DNA of 64,000 nucleotides from a candidate division WOR-3 bacterium (GTDB lineage Bacteria > Hydrothermota > Tepidihabitantia > B3-TA06). The DNA is taken from the NCBI GenBank assembly GCA_965649265.1, contig CBFGKC010000001.1, positions 296,911 to 360,910 of the forward strand, written 5' to 3'. Below, in pieces: positions 15 to 58,142 of the stretch. The translations under genes were made by a program, and so were the position numbers. The stretch's first letter is position 1. Every line of letters begins with the position of its first letter. The notes under the pieces are model-generated. The model searched no databases. It was not told where the DNA came from and saw nothing but the letters and a program-made list of their open reading frames with translations.

Positions 15-1355
15 TCACTTTGCCCATTTCTTGCACAAATCGGGGCAAAAGAACCGCATCGCCTCCCAGGTGGCAGGGCCGCAGATGGCCTCGCCCTTTT
101 CTTCCGAAAGCCCGGCAAGAACTTTCTTTTCCCTTGGAGTCCAGAGTTCATCGTTCTTCCAGTCGTTCGGATCGGTTGTATAGAGCCTGCGATAGTAGTG
201 CTTGGTGCTGTCCTTGTCGTTGAGGTTTTTGATCGCATGGTCCTGAAAGTACCTTAAGAGCCGGTGAACGGTGTCGTAGTCAAAGACGCCCCACTTTGGT
301 TCGGGGTCGGGACCTCCGCGCCAACCCCACAGTATGCGCTGCATCTTCTCGACCCAGCCGGGGGTGTTGCGCCATAGCGAGCTGAAAGTTTTTGTGTCGC
401 GGGAAGCGAAATGAAGCTCCGGCGTCTCGAGCCTTGTTTCGCGCACTATAGCCATCCTGCGCTGGCACTTGAGGAAGTCCACGCCCGGCCACACGGTCAC
501 AGGGATATTGGTCAGATACCCTGAAGGTCCGCCGTGCATGTATGCCGTGAGCATGAAAAGGCTGTAACGGTCGGAGGACCCGCCCTGGATGTTGATGCAG
601 CCGGTTGAACCTCCGCCGACTATCGAAGCGTTGCCTTGATGGAGGTTTGTGTATTCGAGGTTTTCGTAGACATTATTTTCGTTGTACCCACGTTGCTCTG
701 CTGGTTTTCTCCAACCGTAGGTTTCCCTATTTGGTAAATTGGGATCACTACTCTTAATTGTACATGGAACAAGTGCATGATATTCAGATTTATGCATTCC
801 TCTCTTATAGATATGCTGGCCAAAGCCTATTTGCGCGGTGCCTTCTTCGTGACCGGAGTCAGAGCCGGGGTTGACGGTTGCAGGAAAGACGTGCACGTGG
901 TCGCCTGGCGTAAGAAAGTTTTTCTCCCATTTTTTAATCACCTCGTCGGTAACCCCGAGCGCAGGGTCTGCAATCACCGGTCCGGCAAGGGTCATGTCCT
1001 TGAGCCCTTCCCTTTCCGCAAAGCCTTCTACCCCTTTTTCATACTCTTTTGAGAGGTCGTAAGGCATTCTGTAGCGCAGGATAACGGCGTCGTCGAACTG
1101 GCCGAACTTGTTCTCTACGAGCTTTAAATTGGCGGTTCCGTTCTGGAGATAGCCTTCGGCATCTGCTGCTCTTACGCCTTGAAGCGCAAGGATGTTGATA
1201 TAATAATTGTCGGTCGAATAGTACGCTCCGATGTAGTTCATGAAGCCGTCAAAATAGTTCGCGGTTACTGTGCCCTCGTAGCCGAACCACAGGCCGTATA
1301 CGCTGGGATCGAGCTGGTTGTCGCCCAGGATGTTCTTGTCATTATTTTCTGCCAT
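15..1355 (-). CDS. YkuD-like (L,D-transpeptidase-fold) protein with C-terminal peptidoglycan-binding-like domain, no signal peptide
   Basis: ORF 15..1589 trimmed to the ATG at 1355, because the upstream part overlaps gene 1462..2241. The motif NLHQGNASIVGGGSTGCINI has the His...S/T-x-G-C spacing of the YkuD active site. The C-terminus (TVHRLLRYFQ...GEAICGPATWEAM) is PG_binding_1-like. It is similar block by block to 51026..52720. Confidence 0.5.
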   Translation of the reverse strand: MAENNDKNILGDNQLDPSVYGLWFGYEGTVTANYFDGFMNYIGAYYSTDNYYINILALQGVRAADAEGYLQNGTANLKLVENKFGQFDDAVILRYRMPYDLSKEYEKGVEGFAEREGLKDMTLAGPVIADPALGVTDEVIKKWEKNFLTPGDHVHVFPATVNPGSDSGHEEGTAQIGFGQHIYKRGMHKSEYHALVPCTIKSSDPNLPNRETYGWRKPAEQRGYNENNVYENLEYTNLHQGNASIVGGGSTGCINIQGGSSDRYSLFMLTAYMHGGPSGYLTNIPVTVWPGVDFLKCQRRMAIVRETRLETPELHFASRDTKTFSSLWRNTPGWVEKMQRILWGWRGGPDPEPKWGVFDYDTVHRLLRYFQDHAIKNLNDKDSTKHYYRRLYTTDPNDWKNDELWTPREKKVLAGLSEEKGEAICGPATWEAMRFFCPDLCKKWAK

Positions 1356-1461: not shown

Positions 1462-2241
1462 TTAATCTTCGCTGGAGCGGTAGCGAACCCGGTCCCTTGA
1501 TATCGGGTATCTTGACCAGTCGGGATGGGGCTCGTCCATCCACACCCAATGTGCTTCGAGCCAGCGCCACCAGTCCGATGATGGTCCAAGAAACTGAAGT
1601 TTGGTCTCGCAAACGGCCGTTATGCGGTAAAGAACCTTCTTGCGCTCGAAAAAGACATAAGTGTAATACTGGAGCCAGAACTCGTTCTGGGCATAAATCA
1701 TATGCTTGTATTCGCAGAAGACCTTTGCCCGGCGGCCCCTGAAAGTGGCATCGAATGAAGTATCCCAATGGGGGTTGCGACAGGGTTGGAACCAGTACTC
1801 TAGGGGTTGTTTAACGGGCTTACCGGAAGTATCCGAAGTCAGCCGATACCAGAGAATTTCAATATACCCATCAGGCATGAATTCCCCGGAAGGTACGTAA
1901 TCAACCCTATATGAAATTTGGCCCCTCATCGAATCACCCGCGATATCGGAAGGCACAATAAATGGCGCTACATCGAAGTAGTTGTTGATATCCATGTCTA
2001 TGGGATGTACAAGTGGCAATGTGTCCGAGTCCTTAATCCAGAAGGATCTTGAATGCATAAACTCGCGGAGTTTCTCATAGTCTGGCCAAAGCTGTAAATC
2101 CTTCTCCGAGAACTCAGGCAGAATCTTTCTTCTGATCGTGGAGCCTTCCTTGGGAGTGTTCATGTTCTGAGCGGCTTCCTTCTTGCATCCGGCAGTAAGA
2201 ACGACCAGAATCACAACTATACATTTGATTACTTTCCCCAT
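1462..2241 (-). CDS. hypothetical lipoprotein
   Basis: N-terminus MGKVIKCIVVILVVLTAGC is a signal peptide plus lipobox. The ATG at 2241 lies 7 nt downstream of a TATAAT box. The longer TTG start at 2259 would fall inside the promoter. Confidence 0.6.
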   Translation of the reverse strand: MGKVIKCIVVILVVLTAGCKKEAAQNMNTPKEGSTIRRKILPEFSEKDLQLWPDYEKLREFMHSRSFWIKDSDTLPLVHPIDMDINNYFDVAPFIVPSDIAGDSMRGQISYRVDYVPSGEFMPDGYIEILWYRLTSDTSGKPVKQPLEYWFQPCRNPHWDTSFDATFRGRRAKVFCEYKHMIYAQNEFWLQYYTYVFFERKKVLYRITAVCETKLQFLGPSSDWWRWLEAHWVWMDEPHPDWSRYPISRDRVRYRSSED

Positions 2242-45000: not shown

Positions 45001-45726
45001 TTAAATCGTTACAGTGTATGTCAGATCAAAGGCTTCACCGTCGCAAGTGCCCTTGAAATTCAATACGTGGGATCCGGTGGGGATAAGAACGGTTCCGCCG
45101 TCAATGACATAGTCCTGAGTGGTGTAATTCTGATCGGCTGTCCTCGCGCCTTTTTCAGCATTATCTGTAAAGGAATTATACCCGGGCACCGTGATGGTGA
45201 AGGAAGATAATGTCACGTCGTAATTAAACGAATACGTATAAGCAACATGGTATCCGCCGTAGCTCGTTGCGCCTGACGCCGCGACGGCCAATGGTTCAAC
45301 AAATATGGCCATGGAAATCTCGCCCACGTCGGTCATCTTTCCGTCCTCTACGGTCAGCTTCTGTCCGCCCTCGCCGGGTTTGTATGTCCCGCCGTAAACG
45401 CCGACAAGATCACCGCCTGATACCTCGCCGTCACCGTCCATGTCTTTCCAGGCCAGAAGATAGTAGTAGCCCGTAAGAACGTCCTCGAGTTTGAAATCGG
45501 CATTGCTAAGGTCGCTACCGCTGGACTCGGATTGACCTATCTTGACCGGATCGCCGGTAAGATCCGAAGTCTCATAAAGCTCTATCCGCGCGTTTCGCAC
45601 GTCGCCGGTTTGACCCGGTTCGAGTATCAATGAACCCTTGACGCCCGTTGAGCCGAAAATACTGCACCCTGCAAATATAGCCGCGAGAAACACCGCTGAA
45701 CCAAGAAGAACGAGCTTCTTTGTCAT
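45001..45726 (-). CDS. hypothetical lipoprotein
   Basis: MTKKLVLLGSAVFLAAIFAGC lipobox. DMDGDGEVSGGD is a Ca-binding-like loop. Confidence 0.6.
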   Translation of the reverse strand: MTKKLVLLGSAVFLAAIFAGCSIFGSTGVKGSLILEPGQTGDVRNARIELYETSDLTGDPVKIGQSESSGSDLSNADFKLEDVLTGYYYLLAWKDMDGDGEVSGGDLVGVYGGTYKPGEGGQKLTVEDGKMTDVGEISMAIFVEPLAVAASGATSYGGYHVAYTYSFNYDVTLSSFTITVPGYNSFTDNAEKGARTADQNYTTQDYVIDGGTVLIPTGSHVLNFKGTCDGEAFDLTYTVTI

Positions 45727-45759
45727 TTCTCCTCCTTGAGGAATTTGGATGTTTTCCTA

Positions 45760-45787
45760 AGTATAGAAGAGTTGTTCAACAAGTCAA
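45760..45787 (-). promoter_or_regulatory. sigma70-like promoter TTGACT-N16-TATACT (leadered, RBS AAGGAGGAG)
   Basis: Minus strand reads gTTGACTtgttgaacaactcttcTATACTtagg...aaggaggagaaATG. Confidence 0.55.
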
Positions 45788-45801
45788 CACAACGTTCTGC
45801 T

Positions 45802-46551
45802 TCAATCCTTCACCCGTTCTCCTTCTTCAGTCCCGACTGACACCTGCTCAATGCCGGTCCGGTAGTCGGGGAAGGCGTAGATGACCTTTCCTTTCAGCTT
45901 CGAACCGCTCTTCTGGAACGCCTTCATGACGAGGATGCCGTCCTGCGGGAAACCCATGACGATTACCCCGTCCACCGTCACCACCTCGTCCGTCGTGTTC
46001 GAACCGTCCTCGTACACCGCCTTGGCGCGGTATCCCTCTCCCTCCTTTTCTATCGTCAGGCGATACATGTATGCTTCCTCATCTCCCACATCGGCGGAGC
46101 TGATGTCGTAGACGCCCGAGAAATCCTTGCTCGAAGGCTCAAGTCTTTTAGCATTCTTGCTCGACTCGTACGCGTACTCTCCATCCTCAACCCAAAGCCC
46201 GGTAATCCCCGAATCCTGTTTTTTGTAGATTCCCACGATGCCGTCCTCGCCTTGGGTGTACGCGCAAAGGCAGCCCGAAAGCTCCACGCCTCGTGCACTC
46301 TCGCTTCCGGGATAGACCCATTCGAGGTTATAGTATTTACCTTCCTTCTTGATGACGAGGTCGATATCATCGTAGCCTTCTCCCGACACCGCGTATTTCC
46401 CGCTGAAATCAGTCGGGCGAGAACGCGTTTCCTCTACTTGGCCGGTTCCCGTCGACCCACGGCCTCCGTTGTCGGAGACCGCGCAGCAGCCTGCGAGGAG
46501 GCCTATCGCGGCAAAGGCGGTAACGCGTCTGAATATACGGAAATCTCTCAT
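45802..46551 (-). CDS. GCC-lipobox lipoprotein, tandem paralogue 4
   Basis: LLAGCCAVS lipobox with two Cys. Two internal DFSG-x-Y...G-x-Y...(I/L)Y/F...G-x-L-x-G modules. Paralogous to the three genes upstream. Confidence 0.65.
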   Translation of the reverse strand: MRDFRIFRRVTAFAAIGLLAGCCAVSDNGGRGSTGTGQVEETRSRPTDFSGKYAVSGEGYDDIDLVIKKEGKYYNLEWVYPGSESARGVELSGCLCAYTQGEDGIVGIYKKQDSGITGLWVEDGEYAYESSKNAKRLEPSSKDFSGVYDISSADVGDEEAYMYRLTIEKEGEGYRAKAVYEDGSNTTDEVVTVDGVIVMGFPQDGILVMKAFQKSGSKLKGKVIYAFPDYRTGIEQVSVGTEEGERVKD

Positions 46552-46589
46552 AAAAGTCTCTCCTTGTTTGATATTTCATAAATCGGACT

Positions 46590-47354
46590 CTACTCCTTTT
46601 CGCCCTTCTCCGTTCCTGTAACAACCTCTTCTTCGCCCGATTCATCGTTATAATACGAGTAAAAGAACTTGCCTTCAAGCTTCGAACCGCTCTTCTGAAA
46701 CGCCTTTGTCACGAGGCTCCCGCCCACCGGGAATCCCATGACTATTATTCTATCGACCGCAAGGGCGTCCCCGGTTACGGCACTTCCGTCCTCGAAGAAC
46801 TCGGTCGCCTTGTACGCGCCCCCGTTCTTCTTAAGGGTCAGGGTATAGGTATAGCTTTCACCGGCGGTGGCGTCAAGCGCCTCGACGGAATAAGAGCCCG
46901 AGAAGTCGTGGTTCGAAGGCTCGAGCGGTTCGGCTCCCTCGCTCATATCGTACACGTATTCGCCTTCTGCGAACCACAGTCCCGCTATGCCGTCTTCCTG
47001 TCTTCTATATATCCCGACGGCACCCTCCTCCCCCGGCGTGGAGGTGCAAAGGTATCTTCCAAGCTCCACGCCCGTGGCGAACCAAGGTTCGCTTGCGGGC
47101 ACGCCCCACTTGAGACTGTAATATTCACCCTCCTTCCTGATCACGAGCAAGAGATCCTCGTACTCCTCGTTCACCATCTCGTACCTGCCGGCGAAGCTTC
47201 TCGATGAGGTTCGCGAATCGTCATCTCTGGGCTTTGTTCTTGTGGTACGGGTGTTCTCGCCTCCTTCCCCGCGCGATAGCAGTCCGCAGCAGCCCGCGAC
47301 TAATGCGCTCATAATCACAGCGGTTAAGACCTTAACTATACGACAGCTCCTCAT
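46590..47354 (-). CDS. GCC-lipobox lipoprotein, tandem paralogue 3
   Basis: LVAGCCGLLSRGEGG. Same two-module architecture. C-terminus ...MGFPVGGSLVTKAFQKSGSKLEGKFFYSYY. Confidence 0.65.
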   Translation of the reverse strand: MRSCRIVKVLTAVIMSALVAGCCGLLSRGEGGENTRTTRTKPRDDDSRTSSRSFAGRYEMVNEEYEDLLLVIRKEGEYYSLKWGVPASEPWFATGVELGRYLCTSTPGEEGAVGIYRRQEDGIAGLWFAEGEYVYDMSEGAEPLEPSNHDFSGSYSVEALDATAGESYTYTLTLKKNGGAYKATEFFEDGSAVTGDALAVDRIIVMGFPVGGSLVTKAFQKSGSKLEGKFFYSYYNDESGEEEVVTGTEKGEKE

Positions 47355-47379
47355 GATTTCCTCCTTGCATTCTTATTAG

Positions 47380-48147
47380 TTATTCTTTTTCGGCTATCTC
47401 GCCGTTAGAAAATAAATGCTCCTTGCGCTCCACGTCGTCGTATTCGGTATAAAAGTACCAGCCGTCGAGCTTGGAGCCTTCCACTTTGTAAATCCTGACC
47501 GTGATGCTGCCGCCGACGCCTACCCCGGAGCAAAAGTAATCACCCGAAGCGATACCTGCGGCGGTGAGCGTGGGTTCCTCCTCGGAGTTCCAGTAGACCT
47601 TATAGGTTTGCCCAGTGCGTCTGATGTAATAAGTCTGTTCGTACCCCTCTCCCTCCCCGTCGAAACCTATCACGCTGTATTTTCCCGAAAGATCGCGAAC
47701 GGAGGGCCTCAAGGCACTCGCGCCCGGCGAGCGCTCGGTGAAGTAAGCGTCACCCTCCAGGTTCGTAAAAATTCCCGTGAGCTTCGAGCCCTGTTTTTTG
47801 TAAAATCCGAAGATGCCTGGTTCCCTCTCGCTCTCTACTGCAAGCACATCCTCCCCCTCATAGGCGAAGCCGGAGCCGCTCCACGTCTCTCCGTCCTCGG
47901 TCTCCCACTTGAGCTTGTAGCCCTTCTCGAACCTCTTGATAGTCAGGGTGTATGTCGGACCCTCGCCTTGGTAGACCTCGTATGTGCCTGTGAAGTCACC
48001 GCTGTCCTTGTTGTCGGTAGTTTTCCGGGATACGCTTTTCCCGACTTCCCGCTCGTTACCCTCCTCTCCTTGTGACAAAAGCCCGCAGCAGCCGGTCAGT
48101 GCAAGCGCCGCGGCGATCATGAAAGTAAAGAACGTCTTTTTTTTCAT
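47380..48147 (-). CDS. GCC-lipobox lipoprotein, tandem paralogue 2 (most divergent)
   Basis: Start chosen at the ATG at 48147 (MKKKTFFTFMIAAALALTGCCGLLSQGEEG, RBS AAGGAG). The longer ORF to 48264 overlaps paralogue 1. Confidence 0.65.
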   Translation of the reverse strand: MKKKTFFTFMIAAALALTGCCGLLSQGEEGNEREVGKSVSRKTTDNKDSGDFTGTYEVYQGEGPTYTLTIKRFEKGYKLKWETEDGETWSGSGFAYEGEDVLAVESEREPGIFGFYKKQGSKLTGIFTNLEGDAYFTERSPGASALRPSVRDLSGKYSVIGFDGEGEGYEQTYYIRRTGQTYKVYWNSEEEPTLTAAGIASGDYFCSGVGVGGSITVRIYKVEGSKLDGWYFYTEYDDVERKEHLFSNGEIAEKE

Positions 48148-48175
48148 TTCTAGACTCCTTCGATTATAAGCACGT

Positions 48176-48919
48176 TCACTCGCGAGAGGCCTTTTCGCTG
48201 CCCAGAGACACCTTATCCTCGCCCTCCTCCTCATCATAGTAGCTGTAGAAGAATTTTCCATCAAGGCGCGAGCCCTTCATCTGGAACAACTTGACTACCA
48301 TGCTCCCGCCTATCGGAAAGCCCATGATTATGACGTCATCACAAGCGAAGCCGAAACCCTCCACGCTCGAACCGTCGTCGAAGCTCTCCACGGCCTTGTA
48401 CAAATCGCCTGAACGCACAAGCCGCAGGGTGTAGTCGTATTTCTCGCCGGTCTCTTGATCGCGGCTTACAGCGCTGTAGGTGCCCGAAAAGCTGCGGCTC
48501 GAAGGCTCTAAAGGCTCTGCTCCCGCGGTAGTATCGAAGGCAGAAACTTGCTCGCCGTCGCTCCAGAGCGCCGAGAGATTCTTGCCGTCAAGCTTGTATA
48601 TACCAAGCGTTGCGTCTTCCCCTCCCTCGCAAACGCCAAGGTAATTGCCGAGCACGACGCCGTAGGCAAACCACGGCTCGCTCTCCGGTTCTGACCACTC
48701 GAGACGGTAATAACCGCCGTGCTTTGTTATTTCGAGTGTCAGATCCTCGAAGTTAGGGTCTTCAATTTCGTAGCTTCCGGCGAAATCCGCCGGCCTGGAT
48801 GTGCGTTTCGTCTCCTTCGCTGCGTCGGAGCCGGATGACGATTCGTTGTCACCTTGAGACAAAAGCCCGCAGCAGCCCATCACCGCGAGCGCAATCATCA
48901 AGAAAAAGAGTTTCCTCAT
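48176..48919 (-). CDS. GCC-lipobox lipoprotein, tandem paralogue 1
   Basis: MRKLFFLMIALAVMGCCGLLSQGDNE, RBS AAGGAGGAAC. Same two-module architecture. Confidence 0.65.
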   Translation of the reverse strand: MRKLFFLMIALAVMGCCGLLSQGDNESSSGSDAAKETKRTSRPADFAGSYEIEDPNFEDLTLEITKHGGYYRLEWSEPESEPWFAYGVVLGNYLGVCEGGEDATLGIYKLDGKNLSALWSDGEQVSAFDTTAGAEPLEPSSRSFSGTYSAVSRDQETGEKYDYTLRLVRSGDLYKAVESFDDGSSVEGFGFACDDVIIMGFPIGGSMVVKLFQMKGSRLDGKFFYSYYDEEEGEDKVSLGSEKASRE

Positions 48920-49089: not shown

Positions 49090-49731
49090 CTACTTCGGCC
49101 TGAAGGTCTCCTCGACCGCGCGCTCAAGCTCGGCGATGCGGTCGGGGTAGTGATCGGGACCGACGGTTTCGCCCTCGGTGTAATAGATGTAAGTGGTTGA
49201 AAGACAAGTTATTCTGAAATCGAGCTTGTTAGTCGAGATGATATAGTTCGTAAAGGAACCGCTTTCGTGATCGGCGCCGTCGCAAGCATACACCCACCAC
49301 TTGCCGCGAATGCGGTATGCTTCATTGCCGTTGACAGTTATCTTCTGAAACCCCGAGGTATCGTAGGAGATGTAACCGCCGTAGTTGTACAATGGTCGCG
49401 GGACCAGGGTATCGCTTGCTATATGCGGAAACCAATAAACTAAAATATAATCATTTGGGACATCAACCCAGATATTATCGCTAGTTGAAGAATAATGTTT
49501 AACAACACCGGTTTCTTCATTTTTATAGCCGTAAGTCTTATTTGACGGCATATAATAAGGAATAAGCGAAGAATCTTTTTCGACGTCTGCCCCGTTAAAA
49601 CCGTTATCTCGAAAAAAGGGATCTAGGGGACAAGAAACGTTAGTGAACTCCTTCCACTCGCTGTATCCTTGCGGAAGCTTAGGGAACTCAGGCGGATACC
49701 AGATGCCTGATAAGAGAAGTAAAACGCCCAC
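49090..49731 (-). CDS. small protein, cassette copy 2 (candidate cognate/immunity-like partner)
   Basis: 213 aa, paralogue of 50343..50990. Shared features are the WxP..P+LP N-terminus, DFRITC, and the EETF(K/R)PK C-terminus. GTG start 5 nt after TATACT. Confidence 0.55.
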   Translation of the reverse strand: MGVLLLLSGIWYPPEFPKLPQGYSEWKEFTNVSCPLDPFFRDNGFNGADVEKDSSLIPYYMPSNKTYGYKNEETGVVKHYSSTSDNIWVDVPNDYILVYWFPHIASDTLVPRPLYNYGGYISYDTSGFQKITVNGNEAYRIRGKWWVYACDGADHESGSFTNYIISTNKLDFRITCLSTTYIYYTEGETVGPDHYPDRIAELERAVEETFRPK

Positions 49732-49736
49732 ACGAA

Positions 49737-49764
49737 AGTATACCCCTGACTACATAGTTGTCAA
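49737..49764 (-). promoter_or_regulatory. sigma70-like promoter TTGACA-N16-TATACT, 5 nt before the GTG at 49731
   Basis: Minus strand reads cTTGACAactatgtagtcaggggTATACTttcgtGTG. The sequence is homologous to 50996..51023. Confidence 0.55.
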
Positions 49765-49771
49765 GACCCGC

Positions 49772-50323
49772 TTACGGTCGGAAAGGCCTCTGTAGCCACG
49801 GGCACTCAGGTTGAGGAACAGGCTCTATGTTGAAGCCTCCCAGTTCCAAAAGGTCCCAGGTCACCGGTCCGCATATCCACTGGTTGCGCTCCCACATGAG
49901 TTCGTTGCGGTTGATGTCCACGGCTTGCAGCTGCACGGCTCCGTCTCCCAAAAGCACGAAACAAATAAGCTGAAAGTTCCGCAGTGCGGCAGCGGTATCG
50001 TTTCCAAAGACGTCGTCCTCATCCGCTCTTACTAGCTCCGGGTACTGCATGTATGCGGGTATAAATAGGGGGTAATCACGGTGCAACCTGTTCCGCTCAA
50101 GAGTGAACAAATCCTCTATCTCGTGCCTTGCATCATTGAAAGCGGTGATATAATCTATTCTGTTGTTCAAAGCCCTTTGCATCCGGTGAACCCACTGCTC
50201 GCCGTTCTCGCCGGGCCTCAGAACGGTTTGCACGTCTGTTGCGCCAATCTGCAAAACGGGCTTGAACGCAATGAGGCCGATGCTTTCAAGATGGAGCCTG
50301 TACAACGACCACGCGTCCCACAC
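49772..50323 (-). CDS. orphan copy of the PG-binding-like C-terminal module of 51026..52720
   Basis: 183 aa. It aligns from VWDAWSLYRLHLESIGLIAFKP to the end of the 564-aa protein. 122 of 140 nt are identical between 50191..50330 and 51553..51692. Only a GTG start, with no SD. May be silent. Confidence 0.45.
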   Translation of the reverse strand: MWDAWSLYRLHLESIGLIAFKPVLQIGATDVQTVLRPGENGEQWVHRMQRALNNRIDYITAFNDARHEIEDLFTLERNRLHRDYPLFIPAYMQYPELVRADEDDVFGNDTAAALRNFQLICFVLLGDGAVQLQAVDINRNELMWERNQWICGPVTWDLLELGGFNIEPVPQPECPWLQRPFRP

Positions 50324-50342
50324 GATGACGGGGGAGGGGGGA

Positions 50343-50990
50343 TTATTTTGGTTTAAAAGTCTCCTCTATCACCTGTTCGAGTATGGTGTTGTGGTCAGGA
50401 TAAGTATTGATTTGCTCATCCTCGTGAGAATAGCTGTAAAGCATAGTAGTACAAGTTATTCTGAAATCGTAAGTTTTAGAAGGTATAAAATAAGTAGTAT
50501 ATGAGCCTACCCACTGACTACCCCAGTCACATTGTCCTGCCCAAAACCAACCTCTCTGACGGCAGGCTATATTCTCAGATATGCTTATAGTGTCGAGAAG
50601 CGTGTCTTTCGATAGGAAGAGGGCCCATGAGTGCCAATACGAGTGAAGAGGCAAAAGAATATTATAAATATCAACTGAATCAGTTTGATGTTTTGTCCAC
50701 CGAATATAAATGTCTCCATATCCCCAGTTGTTTTTTAACCAAATAGAAGTATCCGTGACATAATGAACGAATCCTGATAAAGAATCACCACCACTATATA
50801 TTTCCTTAAGGTTAACCTCAGTTAAAGCAAAAGGTTTATAAGAGATGGTTTCATAGCTAGAGATTCCCAGTAACGGTTTGTAAAAACCTGGGTCGTACTT
50901 TTGCCAAGAGGTATAGTCTTCAGGAGGTTCAGGTAGACGGGGCGCTTTTGAAGGTAGCCATGTATTAAGCAAAAGAATTACAAAAGACAC
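50343..50990 (-). CDS. small protein, cassette copy 1 (candidate cognate/immunity-like partner)
   Basis: 215 aa, AT-rich, paralogue of 49090..49731. GTG start 5 nt after TATACT. Confidence 0.55.
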   Translation of the reverse strand: MSFVILLLNTWLPSKAPRLPEPPEDYTSWQKYDPGFYKPLLGISSYETISYKPFALTEVNLKEIYSGGDSLSGFVHYVTDTSIWLKNNWGYGDIYIRWTKHQTDSVDIYNILLPLHSYWHSWALFLSKDTLLDTISISENIACRQRGWFWAGQCDWGSQWVGSYTTYFIPSKTYDFRITCTTMLYSYSHEDEQINTYPDHNTILEQVIEETFKPK

Positions 50991-50995
50991 CCAAA

Positions 50996-51023
50996 AGTAT
51001 ACCCTTGGCTACATACTTGTCAA
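50996..51023 (-). promoter_or_regulatory. sigma70-like promoter TTGACA-N16-TATACT, 5 nt before the GTG at 50990
   Basis: Minus strand reads cTTGACAagtatgtagccaagggTATACTtttggGTG. The -35 box starts 3 nt after the stop of 51026..52720. Confidence 0.55.
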
Positions 51024-51025
51024 GC

Positions 51026-52720
51026 TTACTCTCGTTCAGGTTCCTGCCAGGGTGGGCGAAGAGGGTTTCCTGGATCAGGTGCGAACCAGGGCCACTGGGG
51101 AAACCTTTGTTCTGCCGGCCGGGGGGCGATGAGTACGTTGAAGGTTCTTGACTCCAGAAGCTCCCACGTTACTGGACCGCAAACCCACTGGTTGCGTTCC
51201 CATATAAGTTCGTTGCGGTTGATATTTGTGCCAATCTCCAAGTCGGCATTTTCTAAAAGAACGTAACATGCGAGTTGAAAGGTCCTCAATGCAGCTGCTG
51301 TGGCATTTCCGAATATCATTGCTTCTCCGTTTTCTCCGTCCAGAGGGATTTCGTTCATTTCAGGTAAAACCATATTCTGTGGGATGAACAATCTCCATTC
51401 GTTAATCCTTGCTCTTGCTTGTTCATCTTGCTGATCTCTTTGTTGATTGTTGTAGAGTTGATTTCGAAAAGTATTAAAAGTCCGCTCTATTGAATCCTTG
51501 TAGGGTTGTAAAATCCGAATCCTTGCATTCAAGGCTTGCTGCATTCTATCTACCCACTGCTCGCCGTTCTCGCCTGGCCTTAGTTCGACTCGTACATCTG
51601 CTGCGCCAATCTGTAAAATGGGCTTGAATGCAATGAGGCCGATGCTTTCAAGATGGAGCCTATACAAAGACCACGCATCCCATACGATAACGTTGAACCT
51701 AGGTTGATTCGTAATCGGCTCGGGGGGATCAATTCTTAACCAACTACTGCCAGTGAGCGTATCCCCTCCGAATATTTCATCGTAGATTGTTGAGGGATTT
51801 GATGCAACTTGTGATCCAGCTATTAATGCACATCCTCTTGACCATGTAGAAATTGGGTTTTGTGGTTTAGGTCCCGCATGAATCTGAATCTGGCTGGGTG
51901 CGTTGGGGTCGCTTTCATTAAAGAAAGTATATTGCGTTATCAAGGAATTGTTATTTAATCTTCCAAAGTCAGTAATTCTTGTACCTCTAACCGCTTCGCC
52001 GCCATTAATATTCAAGCAAGGATATGGGGGATAATTAGGTCCGTGTCCACCCCACGTAGCATAGTAATTTCCGCTTCCGATACAGGCTGCCCATTTTTCT
52101 TGAATCGCATTAATCCCTGGATTAATTGAGCCAAGCAATGGTCTTATGTGTGGATTGCCTAGAGAATCCTGCCAAACCAAAATTATAGTGTCGGTCATTC
52201 GGTCAACAACGTTATCTGCAAGTTCAAGCCAGCAGCGGTTGTCCTCGATTCCGCTCGTTTCGACTCTCCGGCGCTTGCCGGCCAGATCAAGCCGGTCTAC
52301 TTCCGTCTCAATGTCCCTTGCCCTTTGCCTGAACTGCTGTACTATCGCGTTGCTCGAGTTCACAATGTTCCGGCAACCAGTCGAGATGAAATCCAGATAA
52401 CTATTTTGCCCATGGGGAACAAGCTCCCGATAAAGTGAAGGGTCCTTCTTAAGAATTTCTGTTATCAGTGTCCAGGTTGTATCAAACAATCCTGGAACCT
52501 GCGTTTTATAGTCGTGCAGCGCGTCGTAATCCATTATCATGGGTTCGAGTTGATCCTGTGTGCTTATCGCAAGACCGCTGTAGACAGGTTTTGCACCGCG
52601 CAGTTCTATGATGTTTATCTGGTTTGCCCCGGTGTCAAAGGGCATATTCATTCTTCGTGCAAAGTTAGACAAAAGCTCGTAAGTAACTTCAAATCTTTGA
52701 TCCCTTCCATTGAACAACAT
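51026..52720 (-). CDS. YkuD-like (L,D-transpeptidase-fold) protein with C-terminal peptidoglycan-binding-like module, no signal peptide
   Basis: Start chosen at the ATG at 52720 (GGAGGttttgaagATG), directly after the upstream stop. IQIHAGPKPQNPISTWSRGCALIAG has the His...S-x-G-C spacing. The C-terminus carries GENGEQWVDRMQQALN...FGNATAAALRTFQ...VCGPVTWELL. Confidence 0.55.
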   Translation of the reverse strand: MLFNGRDQRFEVTYELLSNFARRMNMPFDTGANQINIIELRGAKPVYSGLAISTQDQLEPMIMDYDALHDYKTQVPGLFDTTWTLITEILKKDPSLYRELVPHGQNSYLDFISTGCRNIVNSSNAIVQQFRQRARDIETEVDRLDLAGKRRRVETSGIEDNRCWLELADNVVDRMTDTIILVWQDSLGNPHIRPLLGSINPGINAIQEKWAACIGSGNYYATWGGHGPNYPPYPCLNINGGEAVRGTRITDFGRLNNNSLITQYTFFNESDPNAPSQIQIHAGPKPQNPISTWSRGCALIAGSQVASNPSTIYDEIFGGDTLTGSSWLRIDPPEPITNQPRFNVIVWDAWSLYRLHLESIGLIAFKPILQIGAADVRVELRPGENGEQWVDRMQQALNARIRILQPYKDSIERTFNTFRNQLYNNQQRDQQDEQARARINEWRLFIPQNMVLPEMNEIPLDGENGEAMIFGNATAAALRTFQLACYVLLENADLEIGTNINRNELIWERNQWVCGPVTWELLESRTFNVLIAPRPAEQRFPQWPWFAPDPGNPLRPPWQEPERE

Positions 52721-52722
52721 CT

Positions 52723-53346
52723 TCAAAACCTCCATTCGTATTTCAGGTTTACGTGGAGCCCCCTTGTGTCGAGCCGGGGGCCAAGGCTCGCGCCGCGCCA
52801 GGTTAAGCGGGCCTCGGCGTAGGGCACAATCCGCGATGCCGTGCTGTCGCCCCAGAGCCGCGCCTCCGTGCCCAGCGAGACCGCGAAACGCGGCACATCC
52901 CTCAGGCTCTTCACGAAGAAACCCTCGCCCTTGGTGGAGATCGAAAACCGCTCACCCACATCGTACGAATACTCCCTGACGGTCGCCGAACCCGTCCATT
53001 TGCTCTGGCCAAGGCTGTCAGTTGCAAGGACCGGCAGAAGGCTCGTAAATGACACTCGATCTTTCGCATAATCGAGATTTATGATGCTCTCGGGCCAGCG
53101 TCCCCAGAGCGTCTCCGGCTTAATTGTGTCTTTGAAAATTACAACCGTCTCGGCAGGAACGTCCTTCCATATCACCCGTTCGTACCAGCGGAGCACGGTG
53201 TCCCTGACGATTTCCTTGATCCGAAGCGTGTCGCGGACCGTAATTTGACCGGTAGTTTTTCCTGCGCGGCACCGCAGGCCTGCTATAAACGCCGTCGCTA
53301 TAAGCACTAACGACGCGAACAGAGTAATCCAATCCCTCAATTTCAT
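52723..53346 (-). CDS. membrane-anchored beta-rich protein of unknown function
   Basis: N-terminal TM helix MKLRDWITLFASLVLIATAFIAGL, beta-rich remainder ending ...NLKYEWRF. First gene of the minus-strand array. Confidence 0.5.
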   Translation of the reverse strand: MKLRDWITLFASLVLIATAFIAGLRCRAGKTTGQITVRDTLRIKEIVRDTVLRWYERVIWKDVPAETVVIFKDTIKPETLWGRWPESIINLDYAKDRVSFTSLLPVLATDSLGQSKWTGSATVREYSYDVGERFSISTKGEGFFVKSLRDVPRFAVSLGTEARLWGDSTASRIVPYAEARLTWRGASLGPRLDTRGLHVNLKYEWRF

Positions 53347-53530: not shown

Positions 53531-54028
53531 ATGTCAAAGGTCGTCAAGTACAAAGTCCTCAAATTGAAACCCATAGGCGTAGTCCATTCAGCGTACACCG
53601 ATCCCGCCGATATCCACCCCCTGCGCTCGCGCTCGACAAAGGGAACCATCGAAATCTTCCCAGAATTCTCCAAGGGTCTCAAAGATATTGAGGGCTTCTC
53701 CCACCTTTACATTATCTGGGCATTCCATCAGTCCGCCGGTTACAAGCTTCTGACCTCCCCCCTGCTCGCGCCCAAAACCAGGCGCGGTGTGTTCGCGACG
53801 CGCAGCCCTCATCGCCCCAACCCTATTGCGATCACGGTCGCCAAGCTCCTCGGCCGCAAAGGCCGCATCCTCGAGATCAAAGGTCTTGACATGATTGACG
53901 GTACGCCCGTTCTCGACGTCAAACCGTACACTCCGCGCGACCGCAAATCCAAAATTCGCATCGGCTGGCTCGGAGAAATCGAAAAAAACTCTAAGCTAAC
54001 TCGCAGACGAAAGATTAGCGGAGCTTAA
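53531..54028 (+). CDS. trmO: tRNA (t6A37-N6)-methyltransferase TrmO (TsaA/YaeB family)
   Basis: IGVVHS...EGFSHLYIIWAFH...RSPHRPNPIAITVAKLL...LDMIDGTPVLDVKPY. Confidence 0.85.
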   Translation: MSKVVKYKVLKLKPIGVVHSAYTDPADIHPLRSRSTKGTIEIFPEFSKGLKDIEGFSHLYIIWAFHQSAGYKLLTSPLLAPKTRRGVFATRSPHRPNPIAITVAKLLGRKGRILEIKGLDMIDGTPVLDVKPYTPRDRKSKIRIGWLGEIEKNSKLTRRRKISGA

Positions 54029-55544
54029 CTATCTTCAAAAGCTTTCCTTTTCCTCCCCCATGCACTTTGAGAAAATAGGACCCGGAAGGCAGCGTCGTTC
54101 CGTTCTCGCCTCTGCCGTCCCAGGAGATCTTTACAATGCCTTTGCCAGGGTTAAGGGTCCCGAAGCTCGCGATCAGCCTGCCCGATGCGTCGTATATGCG
54201 GGGTTCGGTCATCTCTGAAGGGTCTAGGGATATCTCGAGACTTATCTTTGTCGAGAAGGGGTTGGGTGTTGCCGTTATTAGTCTCGAAAATTCTTCAGGT
54301 TGTTCGACCACACCCGGGATAGCTGCGGACGTGTCGCAAAAGTAGAACGCGGCCCAGTATCCCCCAGGATTTATGCTATCCAGACAATTTTGGGTCCACA
54401 CCGCGTGAATTCTCATCAGGTTGTCAATAACAAGATTGGGTGAAGTAGTGCCTTGTGTAGGGTCTTGTGATTCGCCTATCGTTAAGAGTTTAGTCCAGGT
54501 CTCTCCACAGTCGGTGCTGTGGGCGATGTATGTGTTGCCGTCGGCGCATATGAGCACGGCAACAAGATTATCGCGTGCGGCAATCTCCGCAGAATATTTC
54601 TTCGAGATGGTCGAATCCGCCGTGAAAAGATTTTTTTCTTTCCAGGTCAGACCTCGATCGGTCGAGGAGGCGAAGCAAAACGTCGTAGAACTGTCCCACA
54701 ACGCGTAGTACGCGTCCGCACCGCGTTCCAGATCCAGGTTTGTATAAAGATCATTCAAGGCCTTGGTTTTCGGTTTCTCGCCGTCAGGATAGCGTTCCGG
54801 CCCCCATGTCTGGCCGGCGTGTGTGGACGTAATCATGACCAGTCTCGCCGTGACCGTATCCCAGGGCATGTCTGGATCGGAATGGTAAAGGTTCTTTGTC
54901 AATACTCCCACCTCCTGACCTTTGGCGGCTAAGGCCGCAGGCATGGCTGATGCCGTGTCGGGCATGAGCAATGAGGGCTCGCTCCATGTATTGCCCTTGT
55001 CGCTTGAGGAGATAAAATAGATTTTCGATTTCATGTAGGTGTCACGGTGATCTGTCCACGCCAGGTAGAGGTTGCCATCGCCGTAGCTCATGTAACAACT
55101 CTGCGGTATTGCCGGGCTCACCGCCCTGTCAACGATCCTTTTCGGCGCGCTCCATGTGTTTCCGCCGTCACTTGAGGAACAAAACGATATTCCCCGGTTT
55201 ATGTGAACGAAAGACATGTAGATATTACCCGTGGAATCAGCCACAAGGGCTGCCGAAGTTGCGGTGTCGGAGCCGAAAACGACGGGTGAAGGTTTACTCC
55301 AGCTTTCGCCCAGGTCACAGGTGTAAAGAGAGCTAACCGAATAGTTCGTGAGGTCACTAAGAAAGAGTAAAACGGTTCTTCCCTTTGTGTCAGGTGCCAA
55401 TACCCCTTTTATATTAACAGAATTACCGCATCCGCCGCTGTATCGGACACCGGGAATCTCCCTGCCCTGCTCCTTTGTTCCCACAAGGCCGAAGGCAATC
55501 GAGCTTAATAAAAGCATGCCTGTAAACTCTAACACCTTTTTCAT
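54015..55544 (-). CDS. BNR/Asp-box repeat (sialidase-fold) protein with T9SS-type C-terminal sorting domain
   Basis: Asp-boxes SSSDGGNTWS, SSSDKGNTWS, STDRGLTWK and STDCGETWT. C-terminus TPNPFSTKISLEISL...RIYDASGRLIASF...SGSYFLKVHGGGKGKLLKIVKLR. Confidence 0.8.
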   Translation of the reverse strand: MKKVLEFTGMLLLSSIAFGLVGTKEQGREIPGVRYSGGCGNSVNIKGVLAPDTKGRTVLLFLSDLTNYSVSSLYTCDLGESWSKPSPVVFGSDTATSAALVADSTGNIYMSFVHINRGISFCSSSDGGNTWSAPKRIVDRAVSPAIPQSCYMSYGDGNLYLAWTDHRDTYMKSKIYFISSSDKGNTWSEPSLLMPDTASAMPAALAAKGQEVGVLTKNLYHSDPDMPWDTVTARLVMITSTHAGQTWGPERYPDGEKPKTKALNDLYTNLDLERGADAYYALWDSSTTFCFASSTDRGLTWKEKNLFTADSTISKKYSAEIAARDNLVAVLICADGNTYIAHSTDCGETWTKLLTIGESQDPTQGTTSPNLVIDNLMRIHAVWTQNCLDSINPGGYWAAFYFCDTSAAIPGVVEQPEEFSRLITATPNPFSTKISLEISLDPSEMTEPRIYDASGRLIASFGTLNPGKGIVKISWDGRGENGTTLPSGSYFLKVHGGGKGKLLKIVKLR

Positions 55545-55569: not shown

Positions 55570-57131
55570 CTACTTAAGCTTGATGACCTTTAAAAGCTCT
55601 GTTCTGTCACCGCTTCTTGCGCGAATGAAGTACAATCCATCAGGAACCATCGCTGCGCTCTCGTCTGTGCCGTCCCAGTACAGACAGGACCCCCTCCTCC
55701 CCTCCGTCGCGATATTCTTTACTATTCGTCCTGACGCGTCGTATACGGCAATGTAAATCGGCCTGTCCTGTTCATGCACTATTTTTAAATCAAGGCGATT
55801 CGCGAAAAGGTTCGCAGACGCAAACACCAGAGGTCTGCCAACAGTTTCGACAGGCTCTTCAACGACTCCGGTCGTCGGCTGCATATAGTAGAACATCGCC
55901 TTGACTTTCGCTGTCGAGTCAAGTATCTGCGACCATACAGCGTGAATCCTGTAGTATTTGTCTATGGCCAGTCTGGGATCGCCGGTGCCACCGACATCGC
56001 CGATCCTGTTCGTAGGCGCCTTGCTCAGAAGCATTGACTCATTAAAGGTTTTACCCCAGTCTATGCTGTACTCAAGCAATACCTTGTTGTCCATGCATGA
56101 AAGGACGGCCATGACACTGTCTCTTGTCGAAAATTCCGTCTTGCCGTAATTCTCCTTTTCATTTTCTGGTTGAATTGCCCTGACCTTACTCCAGTGCCAT
56201 CCCCTGTCCTTTGTAGAGAAGACGAATGTGATTCTTGTGCTATCGCAGACTACGTAGTCCGCCGTGCGGCCCAGTTCTAGATCTAACGAGTTGTAATCGT
56301 CGCCAACGTACATGTCGCCATTGTATTTGAAATCCTTGCCTGTAGGCGAGCGGTTTTCTGTCCAGGTCTGTCCGTAATCGCTGGAATTGATGTAGCAGGT
56401 GCGGTTTGCTGGATACTCGTATTCGTTCATGGTTGATACTTCGGGCCAGATAAGAGATACCCTTGATCCCAGGGCGTCCATCTCAAGACCACGAATGGAA
56501 ACCGTATCTTCACAGATTGCCATTGGCGGGTTCCAGCTTGCGCCCATGTTGTCGGAAAGCATGAGCATGATTCTACGCGTGGCCGACGAAATACGGCTAT
56601 TTCCCTTAGGGATACAAACCCAGGCGACGTAAAGCTTGCCTGTCGTAGCGCTGATGGAGGGATAATGAGGGAAAACAGGGAGCAGGGAATCCTCTGCAGG
56701 CGGCTCGACGACGAGCGTTACGGGCGCGCTCCAATGCTCGCCGCCGTCGGCAGATTTCATGAAAAGAATGCCAGAGCTTGCATCATGCCATACATAATAA
56801 AGGTTTCCTTCCTCGTCCGAGGTCAGGTCATTCCAATTGCACGGCTTGGGGTGCTGTAGTCCTGGAACCAGGTCTTGCCGGAGTCAAAAGAATGCAGCAT
56901 CCACGCCGGGGCCTGTAGTTCTGGCCCGATGTATTCTTGCGGTGTCACCACAAGATGGAGTCTTAGCTCCGAATCTATCGCGAAGGCCTTGCCGGCAAAT
57001 TGAAGGGAGATGGCCGGGTTCATACCATCTGTGTTATACCGTGAGTTGGGTATCTCGATGACGCCATCCATGCCAATCAACCCTGAAACAAAGACCAGCA
57101 AAGACATGAAAACTTTCAAGGATTCTCGCAT
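55570..57131 (-). pseudogene. BNR-repeat T9SS-CTD protein paralogue interrupted by a frameshift near 56830-56880
   Basis: The N-terminal ORF (57131..56823) has an RBS, a signal peptide and SFDSGKTW. It ends in frame A. Frame B is open from 56883 and reads ...NWNDLTSDEEGNLYYVWHDASSGILFMKSADGGEHWS, continuing to the CTD at 55570. Confidence 0.6.
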
Positions 57132-58114: not shown

Positions 58115-58142
58115 TTGACACGTCCCGCTTTGCCCCTATACT
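58115..58142 (+). promoter_or_regulatory. sigma70-like promoter of tRNA-Gly (TTGACA-N16-TATACT)
   Basis: Plus strand reads cTTGACAcgtcccgctttgccccTATACT, 24 nt upstream of the tRNA. Confidence 0.6.

Follow-up and report, generated by a model that had tools for sequence, protein, structure and literature searches.

A lysin-like enzyme with a variable PG_binding_1-like module and separately promoted small genes: a candidate polymorphic effector/immunity cassette in a candidate division WOR-3 bacterium

A cassette of five consecutive open reading frames (ORFs) runs from position 53346 to position 49090, on the minus strand, in a stretch of 64,000 nucleotides (nt) from a candidate division WOR-3 bacterium (contig CBFGKC010000001.1). 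This whole stretch is referred to below as the window, and all positions are those of the window unless a related locus is named. In the order of transcription, the ORFs encode a 207-amino-acid (aa) protein, a large protein, small protein A, an orphan copy of the C-terminal module (C-module) of the large protein, and small protein B (Table 1). We propose, with a probability of roughly 0.45, that the cassette encodes a polymorphic bacteriolytic effector with a periplasmic immunity array and that it evolves by cassette displacement. The combination of constant and replaceable regions, a separately expressed partner, small-gene arrays and truncated C-modules (stumps) matches the way in which polymorphic toxin/immunity loci evolve; contact-dependent inhibition (CDI), Rhs, Maf and LXG loci evolve in this manner, with a constant region, a replaceable C-terminus and immunity genes. 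An earlier note on this DNA, made from the sequence alone, had listed the same ORFs, all of which are present on the minus strand where it placed them, and had likened the architecture to toxin/immunity loci. This likeness is now strengthened by promoters that recur in 12 related loci, by small-gene arrays that reach at least four members and by displaced remnants in two further lineages.

The 3' part of the cassette is a tandem duplication. Positions 50191-50330 align with 51553-51692 at 122 of 140 identical nt, exactly the match counted in the earlier note, and a repeat search returned three co-linear direct repeats of 165 nt (83% identical), 90 nt (79%) and 54 nt (78%). The orphan is 51% identical to the C-terminus of the large protein (E 4e-63). 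At the protein level the homology starts at VIVWDAW, as had been claimed, and the correct codon phase is 51691 / 50335. Since the core of the catalytic domain ends in the strand FNVIVWDAW, the boundary of the duplication coincides with a domain boundary. The two module heads (C1 in the large gene, C2 in the orphan) differ by a dS (synonymous divergence) of 0.98 and a dN (nonsynonymous divergence) of 0.07, with a proportion of synonymous differences (pS) of 0.55, and their longest exact match is 32 nt. Synonymous sites are thus near saturation; the similarity of the heads comes from protein constraint, and recent gene conversion, considered as the source of the 83% identity, is rejected.

The orphan ORF (49772..50323) has only a GTG start and no Shine-Dalgarno (SD) site, as observed before, and a promoter was likewise not found. 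The same orphan occurs at the same place in a related locus, L006, whose genome is 86% identical to the window in nucleotides; there the order is enzyme end, promoter, small gene A, orphan and promoter, as in the window. Between these two orphans dN/dS is 0.107 at a dS of 0.64, so the orphan has been under coding constraint. The L006 copy is interrupted by a 65-nt insertion (about 1195-1260) with an in-frame stop. This insertion contains a GC hairpin, GCGCCGCC-AGA-GGCGGCG, and may be a miniature mobile element or an element like a repetitive extragenic palindrome (REP). A programmed +1 frameshift fusing small protein A to the orphan was also considered and rejected, since a 1-nt indel in the C-rich linker of L006 alters the frame relation.

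Base composition differs along the cassette. The earlier statement that the small genes and parts of the large gene are AT-rich holds: GC is 0.389 in small gene A, 0.455-0.476 in the large gene and 0.47 in small gene B, against a window mean of 0.512; the orphan module itself is not AT-rich (0.543), and the 207-aa gene has a GC of 0.575. These values suggest that the enzyme and small gene A arrived later than the orphan and small gene B.

The C-terminus of the large protein had been described as a PG_binding_1 domain split by an insertion, and the profile comparison agrees with this. Eleven C-modules aligned by hhalign with seven canonical PG_binding_1 domains from relatives gave a probability of 93.3% and an E of 2.6e-7. 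All three PG_binding_1 helices (pattern G..V..LQ..L / DG.FG..T..A...FQ / G..T...L) align with the C-modules, which carry two insertions of about 60 and 20 aa; the C-module of relative P0019 is without the first insertion. In Pfam searches, no score for PF01471 reached the 23-bit gathering threshold, and the full-length window protein had no match at all. Sub-threshold scores of 12-16 bits (E 0.017-0.23) were obtained for seven proteins, the orphan, P0003, P0004, P0007, P0009, P0010 and P0019, always on the DG.FG..T..AL..FQ segment.

The variation of the large protein is concentrated in this module. Among five orthologs, the N-terminal part is 43-60% identical, the head of the C-module 62-94%, the middle 26-47% and the tail 0-76%. 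In addition, the C-modules are mosaics, with different combinations of head, middle and tail types in different genomes: the window module C1 combines head H1, the long middle and tail T1, and P0003 combines head H3, the short middle and the same tail T1. Similarly, P0002 and P0004 are 94% identical in the head and 26% in the middle. The large protein therefore has a constant N-region and a variable, recombining C-region, as at polymorphic loci.

Related loci (L001 to L014) were recovered by exact-protein look-ups; scans for related loci in collections of genome contigs (two scans), metagenome contigs and viral contigs returned no relative. All loci that include the flank have the same order, namely a homolog of the 207-aa protein ending in ...Y(E/T)WRF and abutting or overlapping the enzyme start, then the enzyme, then at least one small gene, and this order is kept even where the enzymes are only 32-38% identical. 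Synteny with the window extends to trmO in L001 and L003/4, and in L001 also to a BNR gene with a C-terminal domain (CTD) of the type IX secretion system (T9SS).

An orphan or displaced C-module followed by a small gene is found in the window and L006, in L001 (8143-8343) and in L011 (3208-3465). The L001 remnant lies between the two small genes of that locus and is a 38-codon stump that ends in WICGWKLLEAVEFIIRGPFDIDATEYFPDTGMMQ and a stop codon. Together with the promoter and the start of the small gene behind it, this stump is 89.7% identical in nucleotides to its counterpart in L005. The enzyme of L001 has the short middle and that of L005 the long one, and the downstream small genes of both are 98% identical. 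In L011, an 85-aa stump of a foreign, P0019-like C-module is situated between small genes 1 and 2. The long middle adjoins a small gene of the A type in both genomes where this is visible.

The small genes are paralogs, as had been suggested: proteins A and B are 30-32% identical (E 7e-23). Orthologs of small protein A are 76% identical in L006 and 59% identical in L001 (second small gene) and L005, and dN/dS against L006 is 0.18. The arrays comprise two small genes in the window and in L001, three in L010 and at least four in L011. Within one array the small proteins are 25-40% identical, and orthologs of the same type across genomes are 59-98% identical.

Each small gene of the window is preceded by TTGACA-N16-TATACT, which ends 5 nt before the GTG start; these are the best two promoter matches in the region. 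The hexamers, the spacer length and the distance to GTG had all been given correctly in the earlier note; its distance of 2-3 nt from the upstream stop does not apply to the second promoter, whose TTGACA begins 7 nt after the orphan stop. Hexamers resembling TTGACA-N15-18-TATA(C/A)T, with ATG or GTG 5-8 nt later, precede 20 small-gene starts in the window and 12 related loci (in the related loci, two starts each in L006, L001 and L010, four in L011, and one each in L003/L004, L005, L007, L008/L009 and L014). From locus to locus the spacers vary in sequence, but the hexamers and the distance to the start codon are kept, even where the enzymes are only 32-38% identical. A promoter that lies only 5-8 nt before the start codon implies a leaderless mRNA, and the simplest reading of these sequences would be a dedicated promoter with leaderless mRNA for each small gene. 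Strong SD sites are found in 20 of the 42 window genes (about half). A similar promoter also occurs elsewhere in the genome, for example before tRNA-Gly at 58115.

The N-terminus of the small proteins consists of an uncharged hydrophobic stretch of 9-15 residues, followed by a Pro-rich PxLPxxY..W motif. In the third small protein of L010, a canonical lipoprotein signal (..MSLALC) and a linker are placed ahead of the PxLPxxY..W motif. Judging from these N-termini, an extracytoplasmic location of the small proteins is likely. A further candidate is the 259-aa lipoprotein encoded upstream of the second enzyme paralog, whose gene has TTGACA-N15-TATAAT (2275-2249) 7 nt before its ATG and whose canonical lipoprotein signal peptide likewise precedes the PxLPxxY..W motif. 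Its hhalign comparison with the small-protein family gave an E of 7.5e-4 over 172 co-linear columns at a probability of 25%, and it is tentatively regarded as a distant member of the family. In L007, a relative of the 446-aa paralog, the same promoter arrangement is located downstream of the enzyme. Leaderless expression thus seems, from the promoter positions, to be a trait of the family.

Table 1. Features of the cassette and of the second enzyme locus in the window
Feature	Position	Strand	Basis or remark
207-aa protein gene	52723..53346	-	no Pfam, NCBIfam or PADLOC match
Large protein, 564 aa	51026..52720	-	split catalytic domain and C-terminal PG_binding_1-like module, no signal peptide
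N-segment of catalytic domain, about residues 9-47: helix and first strand 'NQINIIELRGAKPV'	52580..52696	-	by-eye match to family consensus
Helical insertion of about 110 aa (residues 50-158), splitting the catalytic domain	52247..52573	-	AlphaFold2 model, lengths of relatives
Catalytic core, residues 160-350, last strand FNVIVWDAW	51671..52243	-	hhalign to canonical family
C-module 1, long middle type, with Pro-rich tail	51029..51691	-	hhalign to PG_binding_1
Promoter TTGACA-N16-TATACT of small gene A	50996..51023	-	11/12 match
Small protein A, 215 aa, immunity-like	50343..50990	-	GTG start
Orphan C-module 2, short middle type	49772..50335	-	first and only start codon GTG 50323
Promoter TTGACA-N16-TATACT of small gene B	49737..49764	-	11/12 match
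Small protein B, 213 aa, a paralog that has diverged deeply from A	49090..49731	-	GTG start
Second, distant enzyme paralog, 446 aa (P0006)	15..1355	-	profile E 4.8e-123
259-aa lipoprotein, signal peptide ...VVLTAGC	1462..2241	-	tentative small-protein relative

The large protein had been assigned to the YkuD fold of L,D-transpeptidases by its His...Ser-x-Gly-Cys motif. The motif is indeed present, as IQIHAGPKPQNPISTWSRGCALIAG, and H281, S294, G296 and C297 are invariant across the close family of five members. The assignment was plausible on the motif, failed every test applied, and is corrected here. At a cut-off of E<=1, PF03734 matched neither the large protein nor the orphan nor the 446-aa paralog. 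It matched none of 73 relatives at E<=0.01 and none of ten others at E<=1; an NCBIfam search was likewise empty, and sequence and profile searches of the PDB with alignments A1, A4, A6 and A7 returned nothing meaningful. When the family profile of 120 sequences was compared by hhalign with a single E. coli LdtB sequence, rather than a YkuD profile, the probability was 0.09% and the E was 0.61 over 13 columns around the Cys. The published motif of LD-transpeptidases is HXX14-17-(S/T)HGCh (PMC9638812). In the window protein the motif reads H281-x12-S294-R-G-C297-A, and in the family consensus H-x12-S-A-G-C-Q; the order of His, Ser, Gly and Cys is the same, but Gly-Cys is preceded by Arg or Ala instead of His, and the His-Ser spacing is below the published range.

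The structural comparison agrees with the sequence searches. The AlphaFold2 (AF2) model of the window protein itself, built from six sequences, was too poor for a fold comparison, with a pLDDT of 64 overall and of about 45 for the core; Foldseek returned only noise for it. The comparison used the homolog P0052, which is tied to the window protein by hhalign (98.1%, E 7.8e-14) and whose model from 120 sequences had a pLDDT of 95.9 and a pTM of 0.92. A Foldseek search of this model against 350,542 PDB chains gave no match at E<=0.001; the top match was 4xxt (E 0.034, TM 0.36, probability 0.75), and no LD-transpeptidase, Csd6 or Tlde1 structure was among the 50 matches listed. YkuD/LD-transpeptidase identity is rejected on these grounds, and the resemblance is limited to the His...Ser-x-Gly-Cys motif. 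The Tlde1/Tldi1 precedent that had been invoked for the cassette falls together with the YkuD assignment.

The catalytic domain belongs to a different and much larger group of proteins. A word-indexed search of 5.8 billion clusters found only four close homologs of the large protein (42-55% identical), and an exhaustive profile search found 222 relatives, mostly matching residues 165-325 only. A profile of this core recovers more than 7000 proteins of about 200 aa without a Pfam domain, nearly all of them named 'hypothetical'. The hhalign comparison of the window family (A1) with this canonical family (A6) gave a probability of 98.1% and an E of 7.8e-14, and at the profile level the homology of the window family to the family of more than 7000 members is solid. 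D177, H226, H281, S294, G296 and C297 are invariant in an alignment of 125 sequences, and the family consensus reads LNIVGVR..NKFDD..TTDPG..GTAIL..GQY..H.G.Y.AL.Q..RD.DRN..FGINIHKAG..WSAGCQVF. The profile homology and the invariant Asp, His, His and Ser-x-Gly-Cys place the domain in the lysin-like family of PHROG 3000 and PHROG 33083: PHROG 3000 (unknown function) is matched by 23 of 26 relatives and PHROG 33083 ('endolysin') by 20 of 26. Searches with tblastn found 24 phage records with family members, including crAss-like, Bacteroides and P2-like (Pseudoalteromonas) phages, in which they carry the annotation hypothetical, and in BFVD, a database of predicted viral protein structures, the P0052 model matches family members only, one of which is named 'Lysin'. 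Among 73 relatives, PG_binding_1 is fused to the catalytic domain in 28, and fusions to PG_binding_3, LysM and SPOR also occur. By association, that is, through domain fusions and phage annotation, the assignment as a putative wall-directed Cys/His enzyme is well supported. Other fusions among the same 73 relatives are a caspase domain (Peptidase_C14) in six, a VgrG3-like C-terminus of a type VI secretion system (T6SS) spike in one and a class I chitinase domain in one. Many family members end in a C-terminal transmembrane (TM) helix.

The N-terminus of the large protein is included in this fold. By eye, NQINIIELRG in the window N-segment corresponds to the LNIVGVR strand of the family (consensus 'LIxxLxxKGYxxFxxPYxLNIVGVR'), and the same N-terminus is found in relatives P0007, P0009 and P0013; when MAFFT aligned short members with the full-length protein, it put the N- and C-terminal family segments in the wrong places. 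As the catalytic fold takes in the N-terminus, no space is left for a signal peptide. In the AF2 model of the window protein, the helices of the insertion (residues 55-156) have a pLDDT of 76-92; P0007, P0009 and P0013 lack the insertion or have a short form of it, and in P0008 and P0010 it is longer. The 446-aa paralog is 22% identical to the large protein (E 2e-6), shares its catalytic residues (H...STGC) and has a C-terminus that is PG_binding-like. A PHROG search of the cassette proteins gave no match except phrog_3000 at E 0.005 for this paralog.

The catalytic family is unnamed in Pfam, NCBIfam and PADLOC and is without a PDB match; in PHROGs it appears under unknown function or endolysin. 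A phage annotation for which HHpred was applied to neighbouring genes likewise left it 'hypothetical', and a literature search, which was not exhaustive, found no publication describing the family. According to the predicted structure, the family may represent an undescribed peptidoglycan-hydrolase fold.

The cassette begins with the 207-aa protein, which has a hydrophobic anchor at the N-terminus (residues 6-24) and is beta-rich in the remainder, in line with the anchored beta-rich protein that had been placed at the head of the operon. Its C-terminal end, ...LKYEWRF, resembles an outer-membrane beta-signal. It is 57-60% identical to its counterparts in L001, L002 and L003, and homologs are also found upstream of the large gene in L009, L010, L011 and L014. 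The SD site of the large gene (GGAGG, 8 nt upstream of ATG 52720) sits within the last codons of the 207-aa gene. The two genes are translationally coupled, and ATG 52720, giving 564 aa, is most likely the start of the large gene. Searches of the cassette proteins against Pfam, NCBIfam and PADLOC gave nothing above threshold.

Based on these observations, a mechanism may be envisaged as follows. The large protein would be made in the cytoplasm without a signal peptide, and its Cys/His(/Asp) domain would cut or remodel peptidoglycan on reaching a periplasm, with the PG_binding_1 domain and its variable insertions acting as the C-terminus of the effector. The small proteins would be transcribed singly from near-consensus sigma-70 promoters as leaderless mRNAs, independently of the effector operon; they are probably exported or tethered in the periplasm and would neutralise the enzyme there. 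New specificities would enter as a block of C-module and small gene. The incoming block would replace the resident 3' end, and the old C-module, whole or as a stump, would be pushed downstream together with the old small gene; the comparison of related loci shows this pattern of displacement. The 207-aa partner might possibly aid export or release.

Several observations weigh against this effector/immunity mechanism. The enzyme has neither a delivery domain nor a signal peptide, and the 64 kb contain no secretion genes. The variable part is a PG_binding_1-like domain and the catalytic domain is constant, which is the reverse of classical polymorphic toxins, where the variable C-terminal domain is the toxic one. 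The pairing of modules is not one-to-one, as the short middle adjoins two different small-gene types, and with a dS of 0.98 between C1 and C2, near saturation, no recent swapping is visible in this genome. In most small proteins the short hydrophobic N-terminus is not a canonical signal peptide, and the link between the 259-aa lipoprotein and the small-protein family is a weak one (probability 25%). Finally, the peptidoglycan activity of the catalytic family is deduced from domain fusions and phage annotation only, and the confident structure model is that of homolog P0052, the model of the window protein itself having a pLDDT of 64.

The comparison with known systems shows where the cassette conforms and where it departs. 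CdiA-CT/CdiI, Rhs-CT/RhsI, MafB and LXG loci contain orphan or displaced modules of C-terminal domain and immunity gene. Like them, the cassette has the order of membrane beta-protein, large protein and small variable gene, a constant N-region and a replaceable C-region, displaced C-termini, whether complete or truncated, with a small gene behind each of them, extra small-gene arrays, and a conserved junction, here VIVWDAW..., where homology resumes. Unlike in those loci, the replaceable part here is PG_binding_1-like and the enzymatic domain is constant; the protein has 564 aa, without a signal peptide and without the trafficking region represented by two-partner secretion (TPS), PAAR, VgrG, LXG or Rhs-repeat sequences; and the duplicated heads are old (dS about 1) instead of near-identical. 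Neither a trafficking domain nor a linked secretion apparatus, as found at polymorphic loci, was detected. The upstream partner is a 207-aa N-anchored protein, whereas that of CDI is an Omp85/CdiB transporter. Colicin and pyocin operons combine a signal-less toxin, a separately promoted immunity gene and a modular, recombining architecture, and the cassette shares all three traits; in contrast to them, its enzyme is N-terminal, no gene for a lysis or release lipoprotein is recognisable, and the locus is chromosomal and syntenic, not plasmid-borne.

The likeness to T6SS pairs, including Tlde1/Tldi1 (PMC9638812), consists of a signal-less, peptidoglycan-directed Cys enzyme beside a probably periplasmic small protein, of the local His...Ser-x-Gly-Cys motif and of the one catalytic-family relative fused to a VgrG3-like C-terminus. 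The window, however, is without T6SS genes, and the enzyme is without a YkuD match and has Arg or Ala before Gly-Cys. The phage endolysins of PHROG 3000/33083 belong to the same catalytic family, have no signal peptide and have relatives often fused to wall-binding domains; the window enzyme differs in its chromosomal location in a syntenic non-phage context, and the helical insertion of about 110 aa, the split PG_binding_1, the 207-aa partner and the promoted small genes were found at none of the phage copies examined. Taken together, the cassette is best filed among polymorphic effector/immunity loci, as a variant.

Among the other explanations, an endogenous envelope-remodelling module is the first to be weighed, and we consider it unlikely. 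The enzyme would be an autolysin or peptidoglycan editor with the 207-aa protein as membrane partner, the small proteins would be periplasmic regulators, and the arrays would have arisen by ordinary duplication. The locus is chromosomal and lies, in L001 and L003/4, syntenically beside trmO/BNR genes, purifying selection acts on every part, the duplication goes far back (dS about 1) and no secretion system is nearby, all of which would suit such a function. However, an enzyme without an export signal could not reach its own sacculus by Sec or Tat. Arrays of at least four separately promoted paralogs, 25-40% identical to each other, would be unusual for housekeeping regulators, as would displaced foreign-type C-terminal stumps at housekeeping loci, and the close family has about five members among 5.8 billion clusters.

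A phage lysis module domesticated for explosive lysis, vesicle formation or the release of public goods, in which the enzyme would be the endolysin and the membrane proteins would be holin-, spanin- or antiholin-like, appears improbable. The earlier note had offered a phage-derived endolysin as its alternative; this stands for the catalytic domain, since family members match PHROG 33083 'endolysin', and does not stand for the locus, which is chromosomal and syntenic with no phage genes nearby. The catalytic family is common in phages (the 24 tblastn records and the BFVD matches), its members match PHROG 33083, the enzyme is without a signal peptide, as in holin-dependent endolysins, and the C-terminal TM helix of many members has the layout described for the phage Enc34 endolysin (PMC8943055). 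Nevertheless, no phage structural, lysis, integrase or holin-like genes were found in the window or in loci L001-L014, the scan of viral contigs yielded no relative of the large protein, and the only PHROG match of the window proteins is the weak one of the 446-aa paralog. The 207-aa protein and the small proteins are unlike holins and spanins in size and topology, and lysis cassettes are not known to contain arrays of divergent, separately promoted paralogs.

A specificity cassette, in which the variable C-module would serve for targeting or receptor binding and the small protein would be its cognate partner or assembly factor, both exchanged together like the tail fibre and chaperone of phages and tailocins, is regarded as quite improbable. 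It would account for the concentration of variation in a binding-type C-module (middle 26-47% identical) beside a constant catalytic part, and for the movement of C-module and small gene as a unit. Against this, at least one small protein and a probable distant relative carry a lipoprotein signal; as the enzyme is cytoplasmic at synthesis, a small protein with such a signal is unlikely to act as a chaperone before export. Promoters that are separate and apparently constitutive are a usual trait of immunity genes, as in colicin and CDI operons, and the extra small genes without C-modules in L010 and L011 fit the hoarding of immunity genes better. A mere old duplication in tandem, whose orphan copy would be decaying and non-functional, whose promoter-like elements would be conserved through the duplication alone and which would involve no effector/immunity biology, is very improbable: the orphan has neither SD site nor promoter and that of L006 is cut by the 65-nt insertion with its in-frame stop, but the dN/dS of 0.107 at a dS of 0.64, the hexamers and start spacing kept at 32-38% enzyme identity with differing spacers, and the independent recurrence of displaced stumps in L001 and L011 all speak against it.

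As regards the surroundings, the 64-kb window contains no T6SS, type VII secretion system (T7SS), CDI or phage-tail genes, and the earlier observation that no secretion apparatus or delivery domain is visible holds for the cassette proteins and the 64 kb. Neighbouring genes encode TrmO, BNR/T9SS-CTD proteins, MacAB-TolC and glycosyltransferases. Directly downstream of the cassette, at 45001-48919 on the minus strand, lie five tandem paralogous lipoprotein genes (241-294 aa) whose products have signals ending in ..GCCG/..GCCA and no Pfam match; a strong SD site, AAGGAG(G), precedes four of the five, and a homolog occupies the same position in L001 (9120-9878). The gene at 54015-55544 (minus strand) encodes a BNR-repeat protein with a C-terminal FlgD_ig domain, possibly a T9SS-type sorting tail; its Pfam match to Tli3, a T6SS immunity family, scored 26.9 against a threshold of 27 bits and probably reflects generic beta-propeller similarity. 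Por_Secre_tail or FlgD_ig C-termini also occur in the products of 26406-28433 (plus strand), 43168-44871 and 55570-56760 (both minus strand), including a gingipain-like C25 peptidase. The sorting tails, sigma-70-like promoters and strong SD sites point to a T9SS-bearing diderm outside the classical promoter usage of Bacteroidota.

If the proposal of an effector with an immunity array is true, the cassette would stand for a new class of antibacterial systems of the polymorphic kind, whose catalytic domain is unnamed in curated libraries. Its logic, found in a poorly studied lineage, would be unusual: the enzyme would stay constant, the wall-binding module would be exchanged and immunity would be carried on leaderless transcripts. 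The bolder form of this proposal, an undescribed interbacterial weapon of uncultured diderms, is doubtful. In it, a lytic domain of unsolved fold common to thousands of phage lysins would be delivered or released by a beta-rich envelope helper of about 200 aa as a minimal two-partner-like system, arrays of periplasmic immunity proteins on leaderless mRNAs would protect the producers, and specificity would diversify through a swapped peptidoglycan-binding module in place of the toxic domain. Regardless of which reading is correct, more than 7000 lysin-like proteins of phages and bacteria form a family with a confident structure model of one member and no Pfam, NCBIfam or PDB match, and this family is a concrete target for structural, enzymological and endolysin-discovery work.

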